NCBI GenBank assembly: GCA_963824755.1
Contig: CAWGQT010000022.1
Coordinates: 22,930-86,929, forward strand
DNA length: 64,000 nucleotides
Origin: an uncultured Solirubrobacterales bacterium
GTDB lineage: Bacteria > Actinomycetota > Thermoleophilia > Solirubrobacterales > Solirubrobacteraceae
Reading direction: 5' to 3'
Under the pieces are notes generated by a model, which saw only the letters and a list, made by a program, of their open reading frames with translations, was not told where the DNA came from and ran no database searches. Position numbers and translations under genes: made by a program. Shown here piece by piece: positions 2,201 through 63,469 of the stretch. How positions within the stretch are numbered: position 1 is the first letter of the stretch; each line of letters begins with the position of its first letter.

Positions 2201-4308
2201 CGAACACGAGCATCAGCCGCTACCTGCTGGGGATCTTGGCCCTCTTGATCATCATCGGCGGCCCGACGATCGCCGCGATCGCACTAAGACGGCGCTTCCT
2301 CCCAACATTCACCGGAGCGCTGGGCACGCTCGCCACAGCCATCGCCTCCTTGGCCTTCCTCCTCTGGATGTCAGAGGTGTTGGGCACCCTCGGCCTGTTC
2401 AAAATCGCGCCACTGACGATTGTCGCAGCCGCGATCGGACTAGCAGGAATCCGCGTCGGTGGAGGGGCGCGCGGCGATCATGCTCGCGCAGCACGCATGA
2501 GCGCCGCGCGCCCTTCCAGCGGCCCGGCAACGACGGCAATAGCGATCGCCGCCACAGCGGCGGTAACCGCCGAGTGGGCGATCCCGACAATCGAGTCCTA
2601 CACCACAGGCATCCGCACCTTCGACTCGCTGTGGTACCACCTGCCCTGGGCGGCCTCGTTCGCCCAGACCGGCCACATCACCCCGCTGCGGTTCACCGAT
2701 ATCGAGTACCTGACCGCGTTCTATCCGGCCAACGCGGAGCTGCTGCACGGTCTCGGCATCGTGGCCCTCGCCCGCGACACCGTCTCGCCGGGCCTGAACG
2801 TTCTCTGGCTCGGGCTGGTGCTGCTGGCGGCGTACTGCATCGGTCGGGCCCGCGGCGTCGGCTGGGTGACGCTGCTCGGCGCGGCGCTGGCGATGGCGAC
2901 CCCGATGATGATGTTCTCGCAGGCCGGCAGCGCCGCGAACGACGTCGTCGGGGTCTTCTTCCTGCTCGCCGCGGTGGCCCTGCTGATCGCCGCCGACGGG
3001 AACCGTGCGGCGTTCGTGCTCGCCGCGGTCGCCGCGGGACTCGCGGCCGGGACCAAGCTGAGCCTGCTCGCGCCGGTGCTCGCGCTCACGATCGGGGCGA
3101 TCTGGGTGAGCCCCGCAACGGGCAGGCGCGCGGGCGCCGGACTGTGGATCGGCGGCGCGCTGCTCGCGGGAGGCTTCTGGTACCTGCGCAACTTGATCGC
3201 CGTCGGCAGCCCAGCGCCGTGGGTCAACGTTCCGCTGCTGACCCGGCCCGCACCGCCGCTCCAGCAGCACACCGCCTTCTCGGTCGCGCACTACCTGACC
3301 AGCTCACACATCGTCAGCACGACGTTCGTGCACGGAGTCGCCGACGGACTCGGGTCTTGGTGGCCGGCGATCTTGGCCGCGGCGGTGCTCGGCCCGCTCC
3401 TGTGCCTCGACCGACGCGCCTCGCGCACGATCAGGATGCTGGGGCTGGTGGCGCTGGCGTCGCTGATCGCATACCTGGTGACGCCGGAGTCGGCAGCCGG
3501 ACCCGCCGGCGATCCGCTCGGATTCGCGTTCAATCTTCGCTACAGCGCCCCGGCGCTCACGCTGTCGCTGGCACTGCTGCCGGTGGCGCCGTTGCTGGCC
3601 GGTCCGCGCCGCTCGCTGCTGACCGCAGGCGCGCTGGCGATTCTGCTCGTGGCGACGCTCGCTCAGGCGCGCCTGTGGCCGTCGCATCACCTCGACGGAG
3701 CGCTCCTCATCGGCGTGCTGGCGGGCGCGACCGTGCTTGTGGCGGCGGTCAGGCGCGGCTGGATCACCGGCGCCACGAGCCAGCGCGCGTTCGCCCGACC
3801 CCTCCGCGTCGCGCTGATCGCCGCTGTCCTGGCACTCGTAATCGTGGTTCCCGCCGGCTACGCGCTGCAGCGCAGCTACCTGCGCGGACGCTACGTCTAC
3901 CACCCCGGAATCTCGCACCTCGCCCCGGTCTGGGCGCTGTTCCGCACGGTGCACAACGCGCGGGTCGGGATCGTCGGGACGTTCGGCGGCTTCTTCTCCT
4001 ACCCGCTGTACGGCGTGGACGACTCCAATCGCGTCCAGTACATCGGTCAGCGCGGCCCGCACGGATCGTTCACCGCGATCACCAGCTGCGTGGCATGGCG
4101 GACGGCAATCAACGCCGGGCACTTCGATTACGTCGTCACCACCCCGTCACGCGATCCGTGGCATCCGTCGGCACTCGGACCCTCGCCCGAGGGACGGTGG
4201 ACCAGCTCCGATCCCGCCGCCACAACGGTGTATCGAGCGATCGCGCTGGGCCAGCCGATCGCCGTCTATCGGCTGCACGGACGACTGGATCCCACGGCGT
4301 GCCGGTAA
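2197..4308 (+). CDS. Polytopic membrane protein, GT-C (ArnT/PMT-like) glycosyltransferase-like
   Basis: Many TM segments; DSLWYHLP, YPANAELL, SAANDV, GTK, WYLRN motifs typical of actinobacterial GT-C-like proteins; ATGA overlap with upstream gene. Confidence 0.6.
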   Translation: MTNTSISRYLLGILALLIIIGGPTIAAIALRRRFLPTFTGALGTLATAIASLAFLLWMSEVLGTLGLFKIAPLTIVAAAIGLAGIRVGGGARGDHARAARMSAARPSSGPATTAIAIAATAAVTAEWAIPTIESYTTGIRTFDSLWYHLPWAASFAQTGHITPLRFTDIEYLTAFYPANAELLHGLGIVALARDTVSPGLNVLWLGLVLLAAYCIGRARGVGWVTLLGAALAMATPMMMFSQAGSAANDVVGVFFLLAAVALLIAADGNRAAFVLAAVAAGLAAGTKLSLLAPVLALTIGAIWVSPATGRRAGAGLWIGGALLAGGFWYLRNLIAVGSPAPWVNVPLLTRPAPPLQQHTAFSVAHYLTSSHIVSTTFVHGVADGLGSWWPAILAAAVLGPLLCLDRRASRTIRMLGLVALASLIAYLVTPESAAGPAGDPLGFAFNLRYSAPALTLSLALLPVAPLLAGPRRSLLTAGALAILLVATLAQARLWPSHHLDGALLIGVLAGATVLVAAVRRGWITGATSQRAFARPLRVALIAAVLALVIVVPAGYALQRSYLRGRYVYHPGISHLAPVWALFRTVHNARVGIVGTFGGFFSYPLYGVDDSNRVQYIGQRGPHGSFTAITSCVAWRTAINAGHFDYVVTTPSRDPWHPSALGPSPEGRWTSSDPAATTVYRAIALGQPIAVYRLHGRLDPTACR

Positions 4309-51729: not shown

Positions 51730-51738
51730 AGGCCGGTG

Positions 51739-52890
51739 ATGGAAGCTCTCTCGTTGCCGTCGTCGGGCGAGTCGCGGCTGGCGCGAATCAAGGCGTCGAT
51801 GTCGCCGCAGGAGTGGCGGCGGCTCGGCGGAATGGCCGCCGTGATCGCCGGCCTGCACATCCTGGGGTTCGGGCTCCTGATCCTGGTGGTAGCGCCGGAG
51901 CACCTCAAGCTCGGTGCGGCCGGCACGTTCGCGATTGGAACCGGAATTACGGCGTACACACTTGGTATGCGCCACGCGTTCGACGCCGACCACATCTCCG
52001 CGATCGACAACACCACGCGAAAGATGATGGGCGAGGGCAAGCGCCCTTTGAGCGTCGGCTTCTTCTTCTCGCTCGGGCACTCGACGATCGTGTTCGGCCT
52101 GACGTTCCTGCTCGCGATCGGCATCCGCGCGCTGAGCGGCCCCGTTCAGAACAGCCAGTCGACGTTGCACAAGGCGACGAACGTGATCGGGACCACCGTG
52201 TCGGGAGCGTTTCTGTACATCATCGCGATTCTCAACATCCTGATCCTGGTGAGCATCGTCCGGATCTTCTTCGGGATGCGGCGGGGGGCGTACGACGAGC
52301 ACGAGCTCGAGCAACAGCTCAACTCTCGCGGACTGATGAGCCGCTTCTTCGGCAAGCGGCTGAACGCGATCAAGGACCCGTGGCATATGTATCCCATCGG
52401 CATCCTGTTCGGCCTCGGATTCGACACCGCCACCGAGATCGGGCTGCTCGTCCTGGCCGCCGGCGCGGGCGCGGCGGGCCTGCCGTTCTACGCGATCCTC
52501 TGCCTGCCGGTCCTGTTCGCCGCCGGCATGTCATTGCTCGACACGATCGACGGGTCGTTTATGAACTTTGCGTACGGCTGGGCGTTCTCCAAGCCTGTTC
52601 GCAAGGTTTATTACAACATCACGATCACAGGGTTGTCGGTGGTAGTTGCCCTGTTTATCGGAACCTGCGAGCTGTTGGGGCTGCTGGTCCAAAAACTCGG
52701 ACTGCACGGCCCGGTCGCCGGCTGGTTCCAGCACTTCAACATCAACACCGCCGGATTCATCATCGTCGCGATGTTTGTTGGTACCTGGGCTCTCGCACTT
52801 GCGATCTGGCGCTTCGCCAAGATCGAAGAGAAATGGAGCGTCGGCATGCAGCTCGCGGCCACGCGCTCCGGCCGCAAGCAGGACACTTGA
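51739..52890 (+). CDS. HoxN/HupN/NixA (NiCoT) nickel/cobalt permease
   Basis: GMRHAFDADHISAID (HX4DH signature), FFSLGHSTIV, GLGFDTATEI, DTIDG..M..AY.WAF..P.RK.YYN.TIT. Confidence 0.95.
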   Translation: MEALSLPSSGESRLARIKASMSPQEWRRLGGMAAVIAGLHILGFGLLILVVAPEHLKLGAAGTFAIGTGITAYTLGMRHAFDADHISAIDNTTRKMMGEGKRPLSVGFFFSLGHSTIVFGLTFLLAIGIRALSGPVQNSQSTLHKATNVIGTTVSGAFLYIIAILNILILVSIVRIFFGMRRGAYDEHELEQQLNSRGLMSRFFGKRLNAIKDPWHMYPIGILFGLGFDTATEIGLLVLAAGAGAAGLPFYAILCLPVLFAAGMSLLDTIDGSFMNFAYGWAFSKPVRKVYYNITITGLSVVVALFIGTCELLGLLVQKLGLHGPVAGWFQHFNINTAGFIIVAMFVGTWALALAIWRFAKIEEKWSVGMQLAATRSGRKQDT

Positions 52891-53236: not shown

Positions 53237-54223
53237 ATGCGGGCTGCTGCCGTGCTCAGGCCGATCGGCCAGGCCGATCACCTGACCGTCGTCGACCACC
53301 TCGACGAGCTCCGCGCGCGGCTGATCGTCTCGCTACTCGCAGTCGCGGTCGCGTTCGGGCTGTGCTTCTGGCAGAACCACCGGCTGCTGCGTTTGATCAA
53401 CGCCCCGCTCGCGCACCAGACACAACAACAGGTGCGCGATGGGCAAGGCCCGCTGGGAGCCACTTACACTGTCAGCCGCAGCGCGAGGGACGTGGCCGTC
53501 CAGCTGCAGACGGTCGTCGGTCTGCTGGCTGCCGAGCGGGGCCAGCCGGCGGTGTCCAGGACGCTCCGTCAGGTCGACGCGAATCTTGGCCGCGACGTCG
53601 CCCGGCTCTCGGCTCCACCGCCCGGCGACCGTCCGGTGACGCTCGGGATCGGCGAACCGTTCACGACGACCGTCACCGTGTCACTGATCTTCGCGCTGAT
53701 TCTCGCGCTCCCCGTTCTGTTGCTTCAGGCTTACGCATTCTTGATGCCGGCGGCCGACCCGGCACTGCGCCGGCGGATGCGACCGGTACTGCTCGCGATC
53801 CCGATCCTGATGACCGCCGGCGTGACCTTCGGCTACTTCGTCGTCCTGCCCGCGGCTCTGCACTTCTTCCAGAACTTCAACAGCACGCAGTTCAACGTGC
53901 TCGTACAGGCGAGCCAGTACTACAAGTTCGCTGCGACCATCCTGCTCGCCATGGCCCTTCTGTTCCAGATTCCCGTCGTCATACTGGGGATCACGCGAGC
54001 GGGCTTGGTAACCCCTGCACAACTGCGCCGGAATCGGCGCTATGCGCTCGGGGCGTGCGCGTTGCTCGCCGCGGTTCTGCCTGGCGATGTGATCACGATG
54101 CTGCTCGAGATTGCGCCGCTGTACCTGCTGTTCGAAGGCAGTGTCTTGGTAGCGGCCATCGCCGCACGCCGCCGTGGATCTCGCGTCGGTGACACTTCGC
54201 CGACTTCCGTCCCGGCTGGGTGA
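53237..54223 (+). CDS. tatC: Twin-arginine translocase subunit TatC (atypical)
   Basis: HLDELRARL, EPF, P.LL.Q..AF..P, G..FGYFVVLP.AL.FF, FQIP, RRNRRYA, PGD...M. Confidence 0.92.
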   Translation: MRAAAVLRPIGQADHLTVVDHLDELRARLIVSLLAVAVAFGLCFWQNHRLLRLINAPLAHQTQQQVRDGQGPLGATYTVSRSARDVAVQLQTVVGLLAAERGQPAVSRTLRQVDANLGRDVARLSAPPPGDRPVTLGIGEPFTTTVTVSLIFALILALPVLLLQAYAFLMPAADPALRRRMRPVLLAIPILMTAGVTFGYFVVLPAALHFFQNFNSTQFNVLVQASQYYKFAATILLAMALLFQIPVVILGITRAGLVTPAQLRRNRRYALGACALLAAVLPGDVITMLLEIAPLYLLFEGSVLVAAIAARRRGSRVGDTSPTSVPAG

Positions 54224-54300: not shown

Positions 54301-54630
54301 ATGACCGACGAGCGGAACAGCGGCGGCGGAGTGACGCGGCTGTCGTTCATCAAGGCGGGCGCAGGCGTAGCTGCGGGAGTCGCCGCGGCCAGCGTCCCTG
54401 CCGCAGCCGTGCTTTCCGGGGAGAAGAAGGGCGTTGTTACCTCGCCTTCGTCTTCCGCGCCGAAAGAACCGGTAATGGCGTACGTGCGCGATGCGCAGAA
54501 GGGCGAGGTGACGGTGTTGTCCGGCACCGCCGAGACGACGTATCGCGACCACGGGCTCGTCCGGCGTCTGATGGACGCCGCACCCGAGCCTTCAAGCCTG
54601 AACGGAGGAATCGATGTCATCGCACCGTGA
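54301..54630 (+). CDS. Small protein with Tat-like signal peptide (T-R-L-S-F-I-K)
   Basis: RBS gaaaggag; VTRLSFIK, then Ala-rich h-region and PAAA; overlaps the DUF4331 start by 17 bp. Confidence 0.75.
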   Translation: MTDERNSGGGVTRLSFIKAGAGVAAGVAAASVPAAAVLSGEKKGVVTSPSSSAPKEPVMAYVRDAQKGEVTVLSGTAETTYRDHGLVRRLMDAAPEPSSLNGGIDVIAP

Positions 54631-56014
54631 AGCACCGGAGATCAGCAAGGATCCGGTGGCGGACCACACGGACGTTTATGCGTTCGTCAGTCCCGACCGA
54701 CCGGACACGGTCACGCTGATCAGTAACTTCGTTCCGCTTCAGGATCCCCCTGGCGGACCGAACTTCTTCGAGTTCGGCGACGACGTCCTGTACTCGATCA
54801 ACATCGACAACGACGGCGACGGGGTCCCGGAGATCTCCTACGTCTTCAGGTTCCAGACCCTCCTGCGTGACACAGAGACGTTCCTGTACAACACGGGTCC
54901 GATCACCTCGCTCGGCAGCAAGAACTGGAACAAGCGTCAGTTCTATTCGGTCACGCGTGTAACGGGTGGCGACACGACAAAGTTCGGGAACGGCGGCCGC
55001 GGGCTGAGGGCAAAGGTGCTCGGCACCAATCTGCAGTGCCCGCCGTGCAACATTGGGCCACGCTCGACGCCGAACTACCCGGCACTCGGTGCTGCCGCCG
55101 TTCACACCCTATCGGGCGGCGTCAAGGTGTTCGCCGGTCAGCGGCTGGAGGGGTTCTACGTCGACCTCGGAGCGATCTTCGATCTCGGCGACCTGCGCCC
55201 GTTCCAGCACCTGCACCTGATCCCCAGCGCCGACGCGGTGGGGGTTGACGCGACCAAGACGCTCAATGTCCACACGATCGCGATTCAGGTACCGATCTCA
55301 GACCTGACCGCAAGCAGGTCGGTGCCAAAGAATCCGATGAGCAAGAACGCGGTGATCGGCGTGTGGTCCTCGTCCAGCCGCCGCAAGGTGCGGATGCTGA
55401 ACGGCAACGGCGTTCCGTCTGAGTCCGGGCCCTGGGTTCAGGTCTCACGACTCGGCAATCCGCTGTTCAACGAGGTGATCGTGCCGCTCGGCGACAAGGA
55501 TCGCTGGAACGCCCTGCCGCCGGCTGCTGACAAGCAGTTCGTCAAGTACGTGGAGAAGCCCGAGCTCGCCGGCCTGCTGCCGGTTCTGTACCCGGGCGTG
55601 TTCCCGAACTTGGCGAAGTTGAACAAGCCGCGCGCCGATCTGGTGGCGGTGCTGCTGACAGGCATTCCGTCCGGCATCGTTCCCGGGTTCCAGAACTACA
55701 CGGGCAAGACGCTGGCCGACCAGCTGCGGCTCAACCTCGCGATCCCGCCGACGAAGTCCAAGCCGAGCCTGTATGGCCTGCTCGGCGGCGACGCCGCCGG
55801 TTTCCCCAACGGGCGGCGGGTGTTCGACGACATCGTCAGCATCGAGCTGCGAGCGATTGCCGGCGTCACCTACGCACTGGTCGACAAGTCCTTCAAGCCC
55901 GATGGAGCGGCGTCGGAGCTGACGGAGGGACTGACACCCGGTGCGGGCCGCTACCAGAGCACGTTCCCGTATCTCGGCACGCCGAGGAGCGGGTTCGACA
56001 CGCCGTCCAGTTAG
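54614..56014 (+). CDS. DUF4331 domain protein (no signal peptide, N-terminus MSSHREAP)
   Basis: SSHREAP.I..DP.AD.TD.YAF, F.F.DDV.Y.I.IDN.GDG, FAGQR...F.VDLG.IFD, QVSRLGNPLFNEV, GFPNGRR..DD. Confidence 0.88.
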   Translation: MSSHREAPEISKDPVADHTDVYAFVSPDRPDTVTLISNFVPLQDPPGGPNFFEFGDDVLYSINIDNDGDGVPEISYVFRFQTLLRDTETFLYNTGPITSLGSKNWNKRQFYSVTRVTGGDTTKFGNGGRGLRAKVLGTNLQCPPCNIGPRSTPNYPALGAAAVHTLSGGVKVFAGQRLEGFYVDLGAIFDLGDLRPFQHLHLIPSADAVGVDATKTLNVHTIAIQVPISDLTASRSVPKNPMSKNAVIGVWSSSSRRKVRMLNGNGVPSESGPWVQVSRLGNPLFNEVIVPLGDKDRWNALPPAADKQFVKYVEKPELAGLLPVLYPGVFPNLAKLNKPRADLVAVLLTGIPSGIVPGFQNYTGKTLADQLRLNLAIPPTKSKPSLYGLLGGDAAGFPNGRRVFDDIVSIELRAIAGVTYALVDKSFKPDGAASELTEGLTPGAGRYQSTFPYLGTPRSGFDTPSS

Positions 56015-57947: not shown

Positions 57948-58049
57948 CTCGCTTCAAGCGGTCGTCGACCAAATGGCAAGCAGAAGCCCGCGTACCAGTC
58001 GTACTCTCGACTATGAGCGCTCGCGGACTCCACCACATCCGCCGTTTGT

Positions 58050-59054
58050 CGGGAAGTACTGGCGCAGCAGCCCGTTGGTGTTCTCATTGGTGCCGCGCTG
58101 CCACGGACTGTGTGGATCGCAGAAGTACACCGGCAGGCCGGTCTCGATCCGCAGCTGGGCGTGTTGGGCCATCTCGGTGCACTGGTCCCAGGTCAGCGAG
58201 CGGCGCAGCTGCTCAGGCAGCGTGACGATCGTCCTGGCGATCGCGTCGCGGACCGCCTCGGCGCCGTGCCCCGTTAGCGCGGGGCCGTCCTTTACTCGCG
58301 GCGCTTGGCCGGTCATCGGCGGGAGGTAGAGCAGCATCGTAAAGCGGGTTGAGCGCTCCACCAGCGTGCCGATCGCCGAGCTCCTCGCTCCGATGATGAG
58401 GTCGCCTTCCCAATGGCCGGGAACCGCCCTGTCCTGGGCTTCGGCGGGGCGTTGGCTGATCATCACCTCGTCGCTGACGAACCCGCGACCGCGACCGCTG
58501 GTGCGAGCTCTCGGGACCCGCAACGCCCGCCCGGTCCGCAGACAGGCCGTCAGCTCACGCCGCAACGCGCCACGCCCCTGAACGTACAGCGACTGGTAGA
58601 TCGCCTCGTGCGAGATACGCATTGACTCATCATCGGGGAACTCCAAGCGCAGGCGATTGGAAATCTGCTCAGGGCTCCACGCCCTCGCCCAGCGCCGATC
58701 CTTGCGCAGACCGTGACGCCGCCCGATCCACCTCACCCCAGGACCGTCGAGAGCCGTCCCATCGGGCCGCTTGACAGCTCCCGACAGACGGTCCTGCACA
58801 TACCGTCGCAGCCCGGCGTTCACGACCAGCTTCGCCGGCTTCGCACGCGAGCGCGCCGGTCCGCGTACCGCTGCGCCGAGCTCGCCCGATACTCAACGAC
58901 GCCGCCACACCTCACGACGTTCCGACGCAACTCACGAGAGATCGTCGACGGCGAACGCCCGAGCTGACGAGCGATCCCCCGCACCCCACACCCCCCAGCG
59001 CGCAGGATCGCGATCTCCTCCCGCTCAGCGAACGACAGATAACGCCCCGACAGA
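58050..59054 (-). mobile_element. IS30-family transposase remnant, truncated at both ends and frameshifted
   Basis: LSFAEREEIA, RSPSTISRELRRN, WSPEQIS.RL, ISHEAIY, PGHWEGDLI, LTWDQ, QRGTNENTNGLLRQYFP then breaks off; frameshift near 58847. Confidence 0.9.
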
Positions 59055-60060
59055 TTTGCGTAGTTGTCGGTTCAACGCCTCGATCGCGTTCGTCGTGTAA
59101 ATCACGCGACGGACCTCAGGCTCGAACTGAAGGAATGGTGTGACGTGCTCCCAGGCGTCCTGCCAGGCTTGAACGATCGGCGGGAACCGCTTGCCCCACT
59201 TCTCATCGAACGCCTCGAGCGCCGCCCAGGCAGCGTCCTGGTCGATCGCGGTGTAGATCGGCTTGAGGTCCTTGGCGACCTGGTCGAACTCGCGGCGCGG
59301 GACGTAGCGCAATGACCGTCGGATGAGATGCACGATGCATGTCTGCACGACGGTCTGCGGGAAGATCGCCTCGATCGCTTCGGGAAACCCGGTCAGCCCG
59401 TCGACGCAGCAGATCAGGATGTCTCTGACGCCGCGGTGTTTGAGTTCTGAGAGCACTTGCATCCAGAACTTCGCGCCCTCTGTCTCTTGGAACCACATGC
59501 CGAGCACGTCGCGCTCGCCGCTGACACGGACGCCGAGCGCGAGGTAGCACGCCTTGCGCTGCACGCTGCCGCCCTCCTTGACCTTGAGCACGAACGCGTC
59601 GAGGAACACGACCGGGTACACGTCGTCGAGCGGTCGCTGCTGCCACGCGCGGGCGTCTTCCATGACGGCGTCGGTACGCGGCTGATCAGATCCCGGCCGA
59701 CGTTGACGCCGTAGAGCTCGCGCAGGTAGCGCTCGATATCCCGCGTCGAGAGCCCACGGCTGTAGAGCGCGAGGATCTTCTCGTCGAACCCCTCAAAGCG
59801 CCGCTGACGCTTTCTGACCAGTTGCGGCTCAAAGCTGCCATCGCGATCGCGAGGCGCCTTGATCGACACCGGCCCGTGCTCGGTTATGAGCGTCTTCGGC
59901 TTGCCCTTCCCGTTGCGCGTGTTCCCCGTCCCGCCAGGCGGCTCCTGATGCGCCTCATAGCCGAGATGGTCGGTCAGCTCGACCTCCAGCGCCCGCTCGA
60001 CCAACCGCTTGGTCAACTCGCCGAACACGCCACCACGGCCGAAAATCTCCTCCTGGCCTC
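59055..60060 (-). mobile_element. IS256-family transposase remnant, truncated and frameshifted
   Basis: LTKRLVERALE.ELTDHLGY, PRDRDGSFEP, YSRGLSTRDI, VFLDA, DGLTGFPEAI, QTCIVHLIR, IYTTNAIE.LNRQLRK then breaks off; frameshift near 59676. Confidence 0.9.
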
Positions 60061-60138
60061 TGCCCGGATCCGTACTGAACCCGGAACCGCAGTACATGCG
60101 CGCCTGGTCGATACCAGGCGGTTAGGTGAGCCTCTTGC

Positions 60139-61704
60139 GTGAGACTTAGGATTGCGGCGTGCGTCCCCCGAAGGGTTGCTGAGCTGAGCACGGAGTTGGC
60201 ACGTTTCGCGCTGGCCGGAGCGTTGCTCGTGGCGGCGCTCGCGAAGCTCGCTGACCGTAGCGGCAGTCGCGAGTCGATCATCGCTTTCGGCGCCCCGGAG
60301 CCTGCGGCTGCCCCGCTCTCGTGGCTGCTGATCGGCAGCGAGCTGGCGATCGCCGCGGCTCTGTTGATAGGGCGCTGGAGCGTCGCGGGGGCCGTGGCCA
60401 CGCTGGGGCTGCTGGCTGCGTTCAGCGTTGTCGTTGCGGTGGCCCTGGCTCGTGGCAGGACGCCCGCGTGCAACTGCTTCGGGCGACTCTCGGGTGGTCT
60501 GGTCGGCTGGTCCACGGTCGCGCGGAACGCGCTCTTGGGGTCGATGGCCGGTTTCATCGCCCTGGGGGGTCGAGAGCCTGTCGTGTTCGCGGCGCTCGCG
60601 GCGGCATCGTGCGCCGCGTGGCTGGGGCTCGGCCCTCTCCGACATCGCCTGCGCAATACGCGCGCATCTGGCTTCTCGTTGACAGGGGACGGTGGCGAGC
60701 GGTGGACGGTCGATCGGCTCCTGGACGGTGACCGCTCCCTGCTGCTGGTATTCGGACAACCGGGTTGTGGCGCCTGCCATGCCCTGGTTCCAGACCTGGC
60801 TGGCTGGCAGGCCCGGCTGATGGATCGGCTGATCGTCGTGTTGGTGGTTCAGGCCTCGCGGCCCGGAGAGCTGGCTTCCGATCCACGCAACCCCGGCTAC
60901 CGGGTGCTACTAGACGCGCCGGGACAGCTCGCGGCTCGGTATGGCGTCAGGGCCACGCCGAGTGCTGTCCTAATCGACGCAGGAGGTCGGACGGCTTCGG
61001 CCGTGGCAAAGGGCGGCGGCGAGATTTCGGCACTGATCGATGTCAGGTTCGCGGCTGAGGAGACGCAGCGCATACCACGGCGCTCGCTCATAGCCCGTGC
61101 TGTGCGGAACGCGGTCGCGCTGGGAGTCTCTCCAGTCGTCCTCGCCGCTTGCGGAAGCAGCCGGTCGACGTCTTCCTCGACGCCATCAACGGCTACGACC
61201 TCGACGCGTCCCGCAGCGCTGAAGATCGGCAACACCTACATCTGTCGACAGCAATATGCGCTGTGCACAAACGCGGCGTGTGTACCGTCCGAGCACGATC
61301 CAAACATCGTGGTCTGCGATTGCGTCGTCGAGAGTGGCTACTCAGTCGGGTTCACGTCTTGTCCACAGCGGGCGCCACACGGTCGCACCCTGTACTCGAC
61401 GTTCTCGACCGAGGTGGCTGCTGCGGCCCGTGGCGCTATGACATGCCCAGCAGATGTGGCGTGGGCCAACTGCCTGGACGCGATCTGCGAACTCGACCCT
61501 AAGAACCCGGATAAGGCCCGGTGTCAATGCCCGCTCGTCAAGCAAGGGCCGTCGTTCACCTTCGGCGGCGACTGCAATACGCATACCTGCGGATCGACGG
61601 TCTGGTCGGGAGCGCACACGAACGCCGGCGGCCCGAGCATCGCGGCAGCGATGAAGCGCCTTGGCCAACCGCTGGTTTTCCCCAAGCCGTGCCCGAAGGC
61701 GTGA
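60139..61704 (+). CDS. Fusion of MauE/DoxX, thioredoxin-like (CGAC), internal RR-lipoprotein signal and Cys-rich domain
   Basis: AKL.D..G, CNCFG MauE motif; PGCGACH..P.L..W; YGV.ATPSAVLID; PRRSLI...LAAC; 14-Cys C-terminal domain. Confidence 0.75.
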   Translation: MRLRIAACVPRRVAELSTELARFALAGALLVAALAKLADRSGSRESIIAFGAPEPAAAPLSWLLIGSELAIAAALLIGRWSVAGAVATLGLLAAFSVVVAVALARGRTPACNCFGRLSGGLVGWSTVARNALLGSMAGFIALGGREPVVFAALAAASCAAWLGLGPLRHRLRNTRASGFSLTGDGGERWTVDRLLDGDRSLLLVFGQPGCGACHALVPDLAGWQARLMDRLIVVLVVQASRPGELASDPRNPGYRVLLDAPGQLAARYGVRATPSAVLIDAGGRTASAVAKGGGEISALIDVRFAAEETQRIPRRSLIARAVRNAVALGVSPVVLAACGSSRSTSSSTPSTATTSTRPAALKIGNTYICRQQYALCTNAACVPSEHDPNIVVCDCVVESGYSVGFTSCPQRAPHGRTLYSTFSTEVAAAARGAMTCPADVAWANCLDAICELDPKNPDKARCQCPLVKQGPSFTFGGDCNTHTCGSTVWSGAHTNAGGPSIAAAMKRLGQPLVFPKPCPKA

Positions 61705-61805: not shown

Positions 61806-62216
61806 CTAGAACTCGTAAACGGATCCGATGAGCGGCTGCGCCGACGTCGCCCGGCGCGGCTTGCCGGTAAGGACGACCCTTCCGGGCTTCCGGCCCCGCC
61901 GTGCAGTCGCTTGTACGGTGAACGAGCGAATCTCGAATGGGAGGCTGTTTGAGGTCAGGATGTCCGGCCCGTCCTGGATCCCGAAATGCAGATGCGGACC
62001 AGTGCTATTGCCGGTGTTGCCCAGCAGGCCGACCACCTCGCCGGTCCGCAGTCGCTGCCCGACCTTGACGCGAACCGATCCAGTCTGCAGATGCACGTAG
62101 ACGGCGTACCTGCCGGGCGCGATTCTCTGCACCACGGAGTTACCCGCGTAGTCTCGTGGGTTGCGAACCGTGAGGTTCTTCTCCGTCGTCGTGAACGGCA
62201 CCTTCGCTTCGTTCTC
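61806..62216 (-). pseudogene. C-terminal fragment of an M23 metallopeptidase
   Basis: AGNSVV, YVHLQ.GSV.VK.GQR...GEVVG.LGNTGNSTGPHLHF; in-frame TAA immediately upstream and no N-terminal HxxxD region. Confidence 0.7.
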
Positions 62217-62578: not shown

Positions 62579-62785
62579 TCCACTGTCCTAGCGGCACCGC
62601 AACGTAGGGCACTGGCCATCACATTTGGGATGCGGTCAGTCCAGGGCGGAGTCGATCGGCGGTCCGTTGTCGCCGAGGAAGGACAGCTCGCTCGAAGAGT
62701 GCTCTTGGTCACACGAAGCAAAGGATCGACCCGGCGCGGCGTCTGGCCCGGCAAAGGTCAATCACACGCGAAGGGAGTACTCCTA

Positions 62786-63469
62786 ATGGGTCGCTTCACG
62801 AGGTCGGGGTTGGTGCTGGGAGCTGCGGCGCTTCTGATTGCTGGCGGCGGTGCATATGACGCGTTCGCGTCTTCGGGCGGCGGAACCATCACGGTGTGCG
62901 TCAACCACGATGGCGGTACCTTGTACAAGGCGCGCAAGTGCGCCAACCGCGACAAGCAGCTCAGCTGGAACAAGCAGGGGTTGCCCGGCGCGACTGGGCC
63001 CCGGGGGCCAGTTGGTGCGACCGGGGCCAAGGGGCCGGTTGGCGCGACCGGGCCCCAAGGGCCAGTTGGTGCGACCGGGGCCAAGGGGCCAGTTGGCGAC
63101 ACCGGGCCGCAGGGCCCGATCGGGCCCCAAGGACTCAAGGGCGACACGGGTGACCGCGGTCCCAGCGACGCATTCACGAAACGAGGCGGCCCTCCTACGG
63201 ACCTGGCCGTGCCCGCCGGCAATTACTTCGTCATCGCCAAGGCCAGCGTCGCCAACGCGAACACGCTCACCCGATGCGATCTCACCGGCGGGACTGACGC
63301 GGACGCGACGTTCGGCAGTATCGAATCGACCGGGCACACCCAGGAAACGCTCGTGGCTACGATCGTCACGCATTTCGACGCCCCAGGGACTATCCACTGG
63401 TCCTGCAGCTCCGGTTTCAGCGCCAACCAGGCGGTCGTGAATGCTATTCAGGTGGGCGCCATCCACTGA
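62786..63469 (+). CDS. Secreted collagen-like protein
   Basis: RBS aagggag, signal peptide, ITVCV...GG.LY...C....LSWNKQG domain, 21 Gly-X-Y triplets (62978-63166), small C-terminal domain. Confidence 0.8.

Follow-up and report, generated by a model that had tools for sequence, protein, structure and literature searches.

An actinobacterial MauE–thioredoxin membrane protein fused to a cysteine-rich client behind an internal twin-arginine signal-like segment: a candidate Sec/Tat dual-targeted polyprotein

Results and discussion

The stretch of DNA analysed here, called the window throughout, comprises 64,000 nucleotides from an uncultured Solirubrobacterales bacterium (GenBank assembly GCA_963824755.1, contig CAWGQT010000022.1, positions 22,930 to 86,929 of the forward strand). 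The subject of this paper is a single open reading frame (ORF) at 60139..61704 on the plus strand of the window, which starts with GTG and encodes 521 amino acids plus a stop codon. Its product joins, in one polypeptide, a MauE membrane domain, a thioredoxin-like domain, an internal segment resembling a twin-arginine translocation (Tat) signal and a Cys-rich domain, referred to below as the client. A first-pass annotation of the DNA had listed a MauE domain with a CNCFG motif, a CGAC motif, a twin arginine with a lipobox, a linker, 14 Cys, internal repeats and two Trp in this ORF, and all of these are present where it had placed them.

The MauE domain, together with a fifth helix, occupies 60190..60630 (plus strand) and was delimited with Pfam, AlphaFold2 (AF2) and an alignment of 63 of the about 76 full-length homologues described below; every count of invariance given here refers to that alignment. 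Residues 18–141 match Pfam MauE (PF07291) with E=6e-23 and 82 bits, against a cut-off of 27, and DoxX is a weak Pfam match in the same ORF. Five membrane helices are predicted by AF2 (residues 11–38, 54–76, 78–104, 124–141 and 147–164). The active-site motif CNCFG, residues 111–115 (60469..60483, plus strand), lies in the loop that connects helix 3 to helix 4; C111, C113 and G115 are invariant and F114 is conserved in at least 90% of the homologues, while K36, D39, E68, R129 and N130 of the same domain are also invariant. A recent preprint reported that two MauE proteins substitute for DsbB in E. coli with the CXC motif as active site, and proposed a conserved Lys in the first transmembrane helix (TM1) and a conserved Glu in TM2 as quinone binders (bioRxiv 10.64898/2026.03.05.709764). 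Both of these residues are found in the window protein, as K36 and E68. From its motifs, this part of the protein is a putative quinone-linked disulfide-generating membrane domain.

A thioredoxin-superfamily domain is fused to MauE in 8.2% of the InterPro MauE entries (bioRxiv 10.64898/2026.03.05.709764). In the window protein, residues 175–311 (60661..61071, plus strand) form a thioredoxin-fold domain of the TlpA/ResA/DsbE kind, as judged from Pfam, AF2, Foldseek and a family profile. Both Cys of its CGAC motif (C210/C213, 60766–60777, plus strand) are invariant, and T273–P274 is likely to be the cis-Pro loop, with P274 invariant and T273 conserved in at least 90% of the homologues. The thioredoxin-clan models of Pfam that match residues 175–286 all remain below threshold (Thioredoxin_2 25.9 vs 27, AhpC-TSA 24.5 vs 26), as does Redoxin (19 vs a cut-off of 26.6); scores just under the cut-off suggest that this is a divergent member of the family. 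A Foldseek search with the thioredoxin part of the AF2 model returned ResA, DsbE, Etrx1/2, DsbF and FetE (E 6e-8 to 4e-6, TMt 0.7–0.8), and ResA was matched by the family profile with E=4e-10. MauD gave no significant BLASTP match (E=0.56), and no NCBIfam MauD model was hit at E<=1; NCBIfam otherwise contributed nothing specific for the protein.

The segment that follows, P313 to C338 (61075..61152, plus strand), consists of a twin arginine, a hydrophobic (h-) region and a lipobox. Unlike the signal of an ordinary lipoprotein it starts at residue 313 of 521 and not at the N-terminus of the precursor. It is spelled P313-RR-SLIARAVRNAVALGVSPVV-LAAC338, the lipobox being L335-A336-A337-C338, and the twin arginine R314-R315 (61078–61083, plus strand) is found in 63 of 63 homologues. 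Their consensus, P-R-[LF]-x-R-R-x-[LV]-[LI]-x-R-A, is near the Tat motif S/T-R-R-x-F-L-K. At the cleavage position 46 of the 63 have a lipobox, and the majority of the remaining homologues have a motif of the AxA type with basic residues after it. The h-region is weakly hydrophobic and rich in Gly, Thr and Ser: a simple sum on the Hessa scale gives +5.4 on average and +6.95 in the window protein, compared with -0.3 to +2.5 for helices 1, 2, 3 and 5. The 15 residues past the h-region contain 1.9 Lys plus Arg (K+R), and more in the variants that have no lipobox. AF2 leaves the twin-arginine segment unpacked against the helix bundle, with a predicted local distance difference test score (pLDDT) <50 at residues 312–317 and 320–354; these make up nearly all of the segment and most of the Ser/Thr-rich, low-confidence linker that follows the lipobox Cys (residues 339–359, 61153..61215, plus strand).

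Every sequence feature of a working Tat signal peptide is present, and the segment looks like one. A working signal is favoured, since a mere relic would hardly be expected to hold an invariant twin arginine and yet exchange one type of signal-peptidase site for another. Internal initiation, which the first-pass annotation had offered as one explanation for a buried signal peptide, was rejected as unlikely: no Met, Val or Leu start codon is conserved ahead of the twin arginine, and the window has only a non-conserved GTG there (V288). The lipobox that it had pointed out is present in the window protein and in 46 of the 63 homologues but not family-wide, and the accompanying description as a surface protein likewise suits the lipobox variants only.

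The C-terminal part of the protein, residues 360–521 (162 residues, 61216..61701, plus strand), is a β-rich, Cys-rich domain according to AF2 and the alignment. Its 14 Cys are all invariant (C369, 376, 381, 393, 395, 408, 436, 445, 450, 462, 464, 479, 484 and 518), W442 is invariant too and W489 is conserved in at least 90% of the homologues. Two internal repeats with the pattern C-x4-C-x11-C-x-C were recognised at residues 373–397 (YALCTNAACVPSEHDPNIVVCDCVV, 61255..61329, plus strand) and 442–467 (WANCLDAICELDPKNPDKARCQCPLV, 61462..61539, plus strand); BLASTP aligns them, YALCTNAAC..CDC with WANCLDAIC..CQC, with E=0.001 and 32% identity over 34 residues. The AF2 model of the full protein, built on the 63-sequence alignment, has a mean pLDDT of 81 and is confident from residue 360 onwards, where ten-residue means are mostly 84–95 and fall to 59–69 in places. 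Modelled by itself, the domain has a pLDDT of 84.6 and a predicted template modelling score (pTM) of 0.80.

The profile searches and structure prediction that had been suggested for this domain thus gave a confident β-rich model with neither a Pfam family nor a fold in the Protein Data Bank (PDB). Pfam and NCBIfam contain no family for the last 208 residues of the ORF, Foldseek found no neighbour in the PDB (best E 0.19, template modelling score (TM) <=0.2) and no sequence relative in the PDB was found. No cofactor-binding family or fold was detected by the Pfam, NCBIfam and PDB structure and sequence searches, and the Trp-derived cofactor that the first-pass annotation had considered has no support beyond the two conserved Trp. 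Kinship with MauA, the methylamine dehydrogenase (MADH) small subunit, was rejected. There is no PF02975 (Me-amine-dh_L) match at E<=1, hhalign against Paracoccus MauA gave a probability of 1.2% with the signal peptides alone aligned, and no MADH chain is among the 50 best Foldseek PDB matches listed.

Structure comparison yielded no clue to function. The BFVD contains two uncharacterised proteins, A0A6J5QU59 and A0A481YSG1, with the fold predicted for the Cys-rich domain (Foldseek E 3e-6 and 9e-6, TM 0.5–0.6). One is labelled as from an uncultured Caudovirales phage and the other as from Marseillevirus LCMAC101.

A full HMMER scan with residues 314–521 against 1.84 billion representatives showed that the domain also occurs outside the fusion: 287 clusters carry it, mostly stand-alone proteins of 180–250 residues. 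Among stand-alone homologues with a recognisable start, 60 have a signal of the general secretory (Sec) type, 22 have one of the twin-arginine type and 6 are unclear. The Sec-type proteins are mostly Lys-rich sequences in the style of low-GC organisms (GC, guanine plus cytosine), and the twin-arginine group includes clear Tat leaders, e.g. FSRRTALRAGGLGAIAAM, with lipoboxes in some members. Since stand-alone homologues bear N-terminal Sec or Tat signals, the Cys-rich domain is extracytoplasmic. No MauE gene was adjacent to the Tat-type stand-alone homologues on the short contigs examined. The domain is, as far as the models and profiles go, a widespread secreted 14-Cys domain with no Pfam family or solved structure and with a predicted new fold.

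Conservation of the fusion

A search of a collection of 5.8 billion proteins for full-length homologues gave about 76 clusters of 485–540 residues, with 92–97% query coverage and 40–62% identity, each in one frame throughout. Among their named sources are Streptomyces, Mycobacterium triplex, M. lentiflavum and metagenome-assembled genomes of Solirubrobacteraceae, and they are usually annotated as 'MauE/DoxX family redox-associated membrane protein' or 'peroxiredoxin'. The possibility had been raised beforehand that a stop and restart near 61050 divides the ORF into an ordinary pair of genes; the translation of 60139–61704 is unbroken, and neither a stop nor a restart is present there in the window or in the homologues. 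An architecture that recurs in so many protein clusters goes beyond chance, and identity of 40–62% kept across several actinobacterial lineages does not bear out the suggestion of a recent fusion. This is, from its sequences, a conserved but rare actinobacterial 'enzyme plus client' polyprotein family, in which the fusion is real and old.

The family is patchy: the fusion was found in 2 of 401 genomes across the phylum and in neither of the two same-genus genomes sampled. The genomic contexts of four homologues have no neighbouring gene in common, so the gene appears to be self-contained, as had been proposed for a MauE–thioredoxin unit combined with an exported Cys-rich protein; the same four contexts gave no clue to function from neighbouring genes.

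The comparison of fused and split versions that had been recommended revealed related arrangements as well. A deletion variant belonging to one lineage occurs on five metagenome contigs of the Joint Genome Institute (JGI) (L004–L007 among them; e.g. L005 4324–5657), in which MauE is cut just after CQCFG and helices 4–5 and the thioredoxin domain are missing. Here a gene starting MSVLWERRTVIAHAARGAAAFGGLPLIAAAC overlaps the truncated MauE by 31 nucleotides and encodes the Cys-rich domain as a Tat lipoprotein; the segment that is internal in the window protein is used in it as an N-terminal Tat-lipoprotein signal. Another JGI metagenome protein (P0113, 718 residues) consists of MauE–thioredoxin, a twin-arginine signal SRRQLIRAAGGGVLALTLVG..ARA and a different Cys-rich region, which is far richer in Cys than the window client. 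As P0113 carries another client, the enzyme–signal–client design arose with more than one.

Two loci elsewhere in the genome of the window show the components apart. One (L014, contig C14:110253–113594, minus strand, about 57–1890) is a split three-gene version that encodes a five-helix MauE (CGCFG), a 211-residue Cys-rich protein with a Tat leader (TSRRSALAHAAVAGSAFAVAPL), many Cys and no Pfam family, and a membrane-anchored thioredoxin-like protein (GCTTC), the anchor of which, MMVAVVSVETVLLVILVVLVAGLLRSHAEILRRLG, has charges solely after the helix. The other (L012, contig C18:305928–309308) contains a 343-residue MauE–thioredoxin fusion with no client (1498–2529) and, about 0.4 kb downstream, a Cys-containing ORF with a Tat-like leader RHTRRHALKTAMATGAALVVPFQRASPARA (2762–3379). 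Finally, a MauE–thioredoxin–PqqD fusion was found (P0104, L022 2017–3375; PqqD E=4.5e-13), with no helix between thioredoxin and PqqD. Next to the fusion gene at that locus are a further PqqD gene, separate from it, and a weakly ScmC-like one.

Membrane topology and a proposed route of export

Membrane topology, a matter on which the first-pass annotation is silent, is the central puzzle of this protein. Because a single chain carries oxidase, thioredoxin partner, export signal and client, the topology is constrained by domain order and the question becomes testable. A signal peptide functions with its twin arginine in the cytoplasm. The lone hydrophobic segment between the thioredoxin domain and the client has its twin arginine on the N-terminal side, so the thioredoxin domain should be cytoplasmic, and because helices 4 and 5 link that domain back to loop 3, the CXC loop should be cytoplasmic as well. 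The distribution of charges is in agreement: there are 11.0 K+R per protein in loops 1 and 3 together with the 15 residues that follow helix 5, compared with 0.87 in loops 2 and 4 and the N-terminus. The P0104 fusion is an independent marker in the same sense: its PqqD shares a side of the membrane with the thioredoxin domain, and PqqD/RRE domains work in the cytoplasm.

The explanation that we favour, plausible though somewhat short of probable, is that the window protein is a Sec/Tat dual-targeted polyprotein, in which a cytoplasm-facing MauE–thioredoxin unit would oxidise its own client, which would then be exported by Tat, cut and lipidated at C338. The five helices of MauE would be inserted by Sec/YidC so that a short N-terminal stretch is outside and the CXC loop and the thioredoxin domain are on the cytoplasmic face. 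There the thioredoxin domain would oxidise and fold the tethered Cys-rich domain, with up to seven disulfides, and electrons would pass from its CGAC motif to MauE and on to quinone. The internal twin-arginine signal would then be recognised and the folded domain moved across by Tat, as happens for Sec/Tat dual-targeted membrane proteins. In the window protein, lipidation and cleavage at C338 by Lgt and LspA would release a surface lipoprotein and leave a six-helix MauE–thioredoxin protein in the membrane; the AxA variants might be cut by signal peptidase I or be kept anchored. The genome encodes two tatC copies and Lgt, and the recurrence of the design in P0113, at L014 and in the canonical mau cluster, with its Tat leader on MauA, also speaks for this explanation.

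Alternative explanations

A number of points weigh against this explanation, and several of them favour instead a canonical orientation of MauE, which we regard as unlikely but as the strongest of the alternatives. In that arrangement the N-terminus is cytoplasmic and the CXC periplasmic, helix 5 brings the thioredoxin domain out via Sec and the twin-arginine segment is translocated too, so that thioredoxin, linker and Cys-rich domain all lie outside, tethered by helix 5. The client would be oxidised outside in the manner of DsbB and DsbA, and the twin arginine and lipobox would be a relic signal or a hinge at the membrane surface. The sole functional study of MauE reports periplasmic activity: its two proteins complement dsbB, and TOPCONS puts the CXC of both in the periplasm (bioRxiv 10.64898/2026.03.05.709764). 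The closest solved relatives of the thioredoxin-like domain (ResA, DsbE, DsbF, Etrx) are all extracytoplasmic. Most stand-alone clients use Sec-type signals and would need oxidation outside, so folding in the cytoplasm is not a necessity for this domain, and disulfide formation facing the reducing cytoplasm would be unusual. The weak hydrophobicity of the twin-arginine segment, with its positive sum, would also allow it to pass through Sec without stopping there.

The topology assignment itself rests on sequence rules, and the charge bias is not confined to the fusion. As a control for the charges, an earlier tblastn of plasmids gave no match and a third homologue search returned actinobacterial MauE only; tblastn then led to a Paracoccus yeei plasmid (NZ_CP020445.2) that has a canonical mau cluster (mauF-B-E-D-A-amicyanin-J-G...; L020, 38194–46218). 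The MauE of this cluster has the same Lys/Arg bias (loop 1, loop 3 and C-terminal tail), nearly all of its Lys and Arg being on the CXC side. Since canonical MauE has it too, the bias is not special to the window fusion, and it may be a trait of the MauE family that is independent of topology.

The canonical orientation, for its part, leaves unexplained the twin arginine in 63 of 63 homologues with its Tat-like RR-x-L-I-x-R consensus, and the interchangeable lipobox and AxA motifs maintained across 40–62% identity. It also breaks the positive-inside rule strongly (11.0 vs 0.87 K+R) and would put the PqqD of the MauE–thioredoxin–PqqD fusion outside the cell.

A second alternative, which seems improbable, places the two enzymatic parts on different sides of the membrane. 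A four-helix MauE would have its CXC outside and the fifth helix would not span, leaving the thioredoxin domain in the cytoplasm with no redox connection to the CXC; its role would be that of a holdase or reductase, by which the client Cys stay reduced or under quality control until Tat export, after which MauE would oxidise the client. This would reconcile a periplasmic CXC with an N-in Tat signal behind the thioredoxin domain, and helix 5 is indeed Ala-rich and moderately hydrophobic (+2.0 on average). However, AF2 predicts the helix at residues 147–164 with confidence (pLDDT ~91–92) and as continuous with the bundle, related MauE–thioredoxin fusions have a plainly hydrophobic fifth helix and the K/R-rich loops 1 and 3 fit poorly with an outside location. 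Moreover, MauE–thioredoxin proteins are usually read like VKOR–thioredoxin, with the thioredoxin domain near the active-site Cys pair (bioRxiv 10.64898/2026.03.05.709764).

It is more improbable still that the ORF is an artefact or a decaying copy, i.e. two genes in reality or a silent pseudogene hit by insertion sequences. A Mutator (IS256-type) transposase gene, which is frameshifted and spans two overlapping ORFs (59025..60097, minus strand), abuts the 5' end of the ORF, and an IS30-like rve/HTH_38 transposase remnant, split into two ORFs, lies farther upstream (58011–58984, minus strand); other copies of the upstream insertion sequence in the genome match window 59950–60054 only. Residues ~1–15 of the ORF (MRLRIAACVPRRVAE) have no equivalent in the homologues, which start at about residue 16. 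Because the transposase gene abuts the 5' end and the first ~15 residues are unmatched, the start codon and promoter are uncertain, and the window copy may be silent, a further point against the favoured reading as far as expression goes. The patchiness of the family, its absence from the same-genus genomes sampled and the deletion variant with MauE cut after CQCFG (L004–L007) could be taken in the same sense. Yet all 521 codons are intact, the protein aligns end to end with the ~76 homologues and all catalytic and structural residues are retained, so the doubt touches the expression of the window copy and not the architecture.

Least credible of all is a canonical MauE with thioredoxin outside, in which the twin-arginine segment is a sixth helix that crosses the membrane inwards and the client is a cytoplasmic Zn or Fe–S (iron–sulfur) binder. 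This keeps the usual MauE orientation, and metals could be bound by 14 invariant Cys arranged as C-x4-C ... C-x-C. Against it, the N-terminal signals of the stand-alone homologues are classic cleavable ones of the Sec, Tat or lipoprotein kind, and the basic residues flank the segment on its N-terminal, i.e. the wrong, side.

Implications for Mau-type modules

If the dual-targeted polyprotein is the correct explanation, its internal Tat signal is a natural reporter of topology for Mau-type modules. The remaining components of the Paracoccus cluster are relevant here: MauD has an uncharged N-terminus and one helix followed by Arg residues, and MauA has a long Tat leader SRRVAGRTSRRGALGRLG. By the positive-inside rule, Paracoccus MauE and MauD would both be oriented towards the cytoplasm, contrary to the periplasmic view usually taken of them. 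Judging from the charges, the alternatives are that the entire Mau-type class has a cytoplasmic orientation or that MauE is an exception to the positive-inside rule. The broader proposal that Mau-type MauE/thioredoxin modules, classical MauE/MauD included, face the cytoplasm and that their clients are oxidised and then exported folded by Tat is a tentative one, and on balance we think it somewhat unlikely. If true, it would constitute a dedicated 'oxidise inside, export folded' route and would explain both the twin-arginine leaders on MauA and many Cys-rich MauE partners and the loss of the small subunit in mauE and mauD mutants.

Tat exports folded proteins, and in E. coli disulfide-dependent proteins cross Tat only when they have first been oxidised in the cytoplasm. 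To our knowledge, how the Cys-rich proteins that Tat carries in nature, such as MauA, cope with this has never been settled. The family described here may be of use in testing how proteins with a requirement for many disulfide bonds are exported by bacteria. On the topology of MauD and MauE or the Tat export of MauA, a literature search gave nothing beyond the MauE preprint (bioRxiv 10.64898/2026.03.05.709764).

Genomic setting

Downstream of the ORF are a short M23 peptidase fragment (131 residues, 61806–62201, minus strand) and a 279-residue protein with collagen-like GxY repeats (PF01391, E=5e-9; 62630–63469, plus strand). A second tatC paralogue lies 6 kb upstream (53237–54220, plus strand; PF00902, E=1.3e-51), the other tatC of the genome being on contig C32. 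It is preceded by a NicO nickel transporter gene (51736–52890, plus strand) and followed by an unassigned ORF of 136 residues and a DUF4331 gene (54614–56014, plus strand; E=4e-139). This tatC may encode a dedicated TatC for the DUF4331 protein. A link to the MauE fusion was considered and is not supported: the tatC gene stands beside the DUF4331 gene and is absent from the homologue loci, and a hydrolase gene and two transposase remnants separate it from the ORF at 60139–61704.

Comparison with known systems

The nearest functional parallel is the mauE-mauD-mauA cluster (Paracoccus yeei NZ_CP020445.2), which likewise combines a CXC MauE, an anchored thioredoxin-fold protein, MauD, and a disulfide-rich client with a Tat leader, MauA. 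The Lys/Arg bias of MauE and an anchor of MauD with charges only behind the helix are also shared. The window protein differs in that the three parts are fused in one polypeptide, so that the Tat signal is internal, and its client has no relationship to MauA. The four homologue loci examined and the window ORFs scanned contained neither mauB nor mauG nor an amicyanin gene.

The cytochrome b–c1 protein FbcH of Bradyrhizobium is a polyprotein precursor with an internal signal peptide, the halves of which are separated by processing. Like the window protein it has a polytopic membrane protein, then an internal signal peptide and then an exported domain. Its signal is of the Sec type and its exported domain a haem protein, and it is without a Tat motif, a lipobox or an enzyme–client relationship.

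With the DsbB-like MauE proteins and MauE–thioredoxin fusions, the window protein shares the Pfam MauE domain, a CXC-F-G motif between helices 3 and 4, the Lys and Glu residues and a fused thioredoxin domain. The MauE enzymes of the preprint, unlike it, are generalists that have their CXC in the periplasm and lack a fused client (bioRxiv 10.64898/2026.03.05.709764). The window family carries its client behind an internal Tat-type signal, which would imply the opposite orientation of the thioredoxin domain.

Sec/Tat dual-targeted polytopic proteins include the actinobacterial Rieske protein QcrA, Sco3746, polyferredoxins and YkuE-type phosphoesterases (PMC3471235, PMC5449189). Their signature is a final helix of low hydrophobicity with basic residues behind it (PMC5449189), and the window family resembles them in having Sec-type helices, then a twin arginine directly before a weakly hydrophobic last helix, basic residues after it and a globular extracytoplasmic C-terminal domain at the end. 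PMC5449189 makes no mention of MauE, thioredoxin, DoxX, lipoprotein or disulfide. The known proteins carry Fe–S, molybdenum cofactor (MoCo) or metal-centre domains, whereas the domain of the window family is disulfide-rich and shows no sign of a cofactor. The family also has a thioredoxin domain of ~135 residues between the last Sec helix and the twin arginine, and in its many members with a lipobox or AxA motif the final helix may be removed instead of serving as an anchor. If the favoured explanation is right, the family would add a non-cofactor client to the known Sec/Tat dual-targeted membrane proteins, as well as an example of an internal lipoprotein signal.

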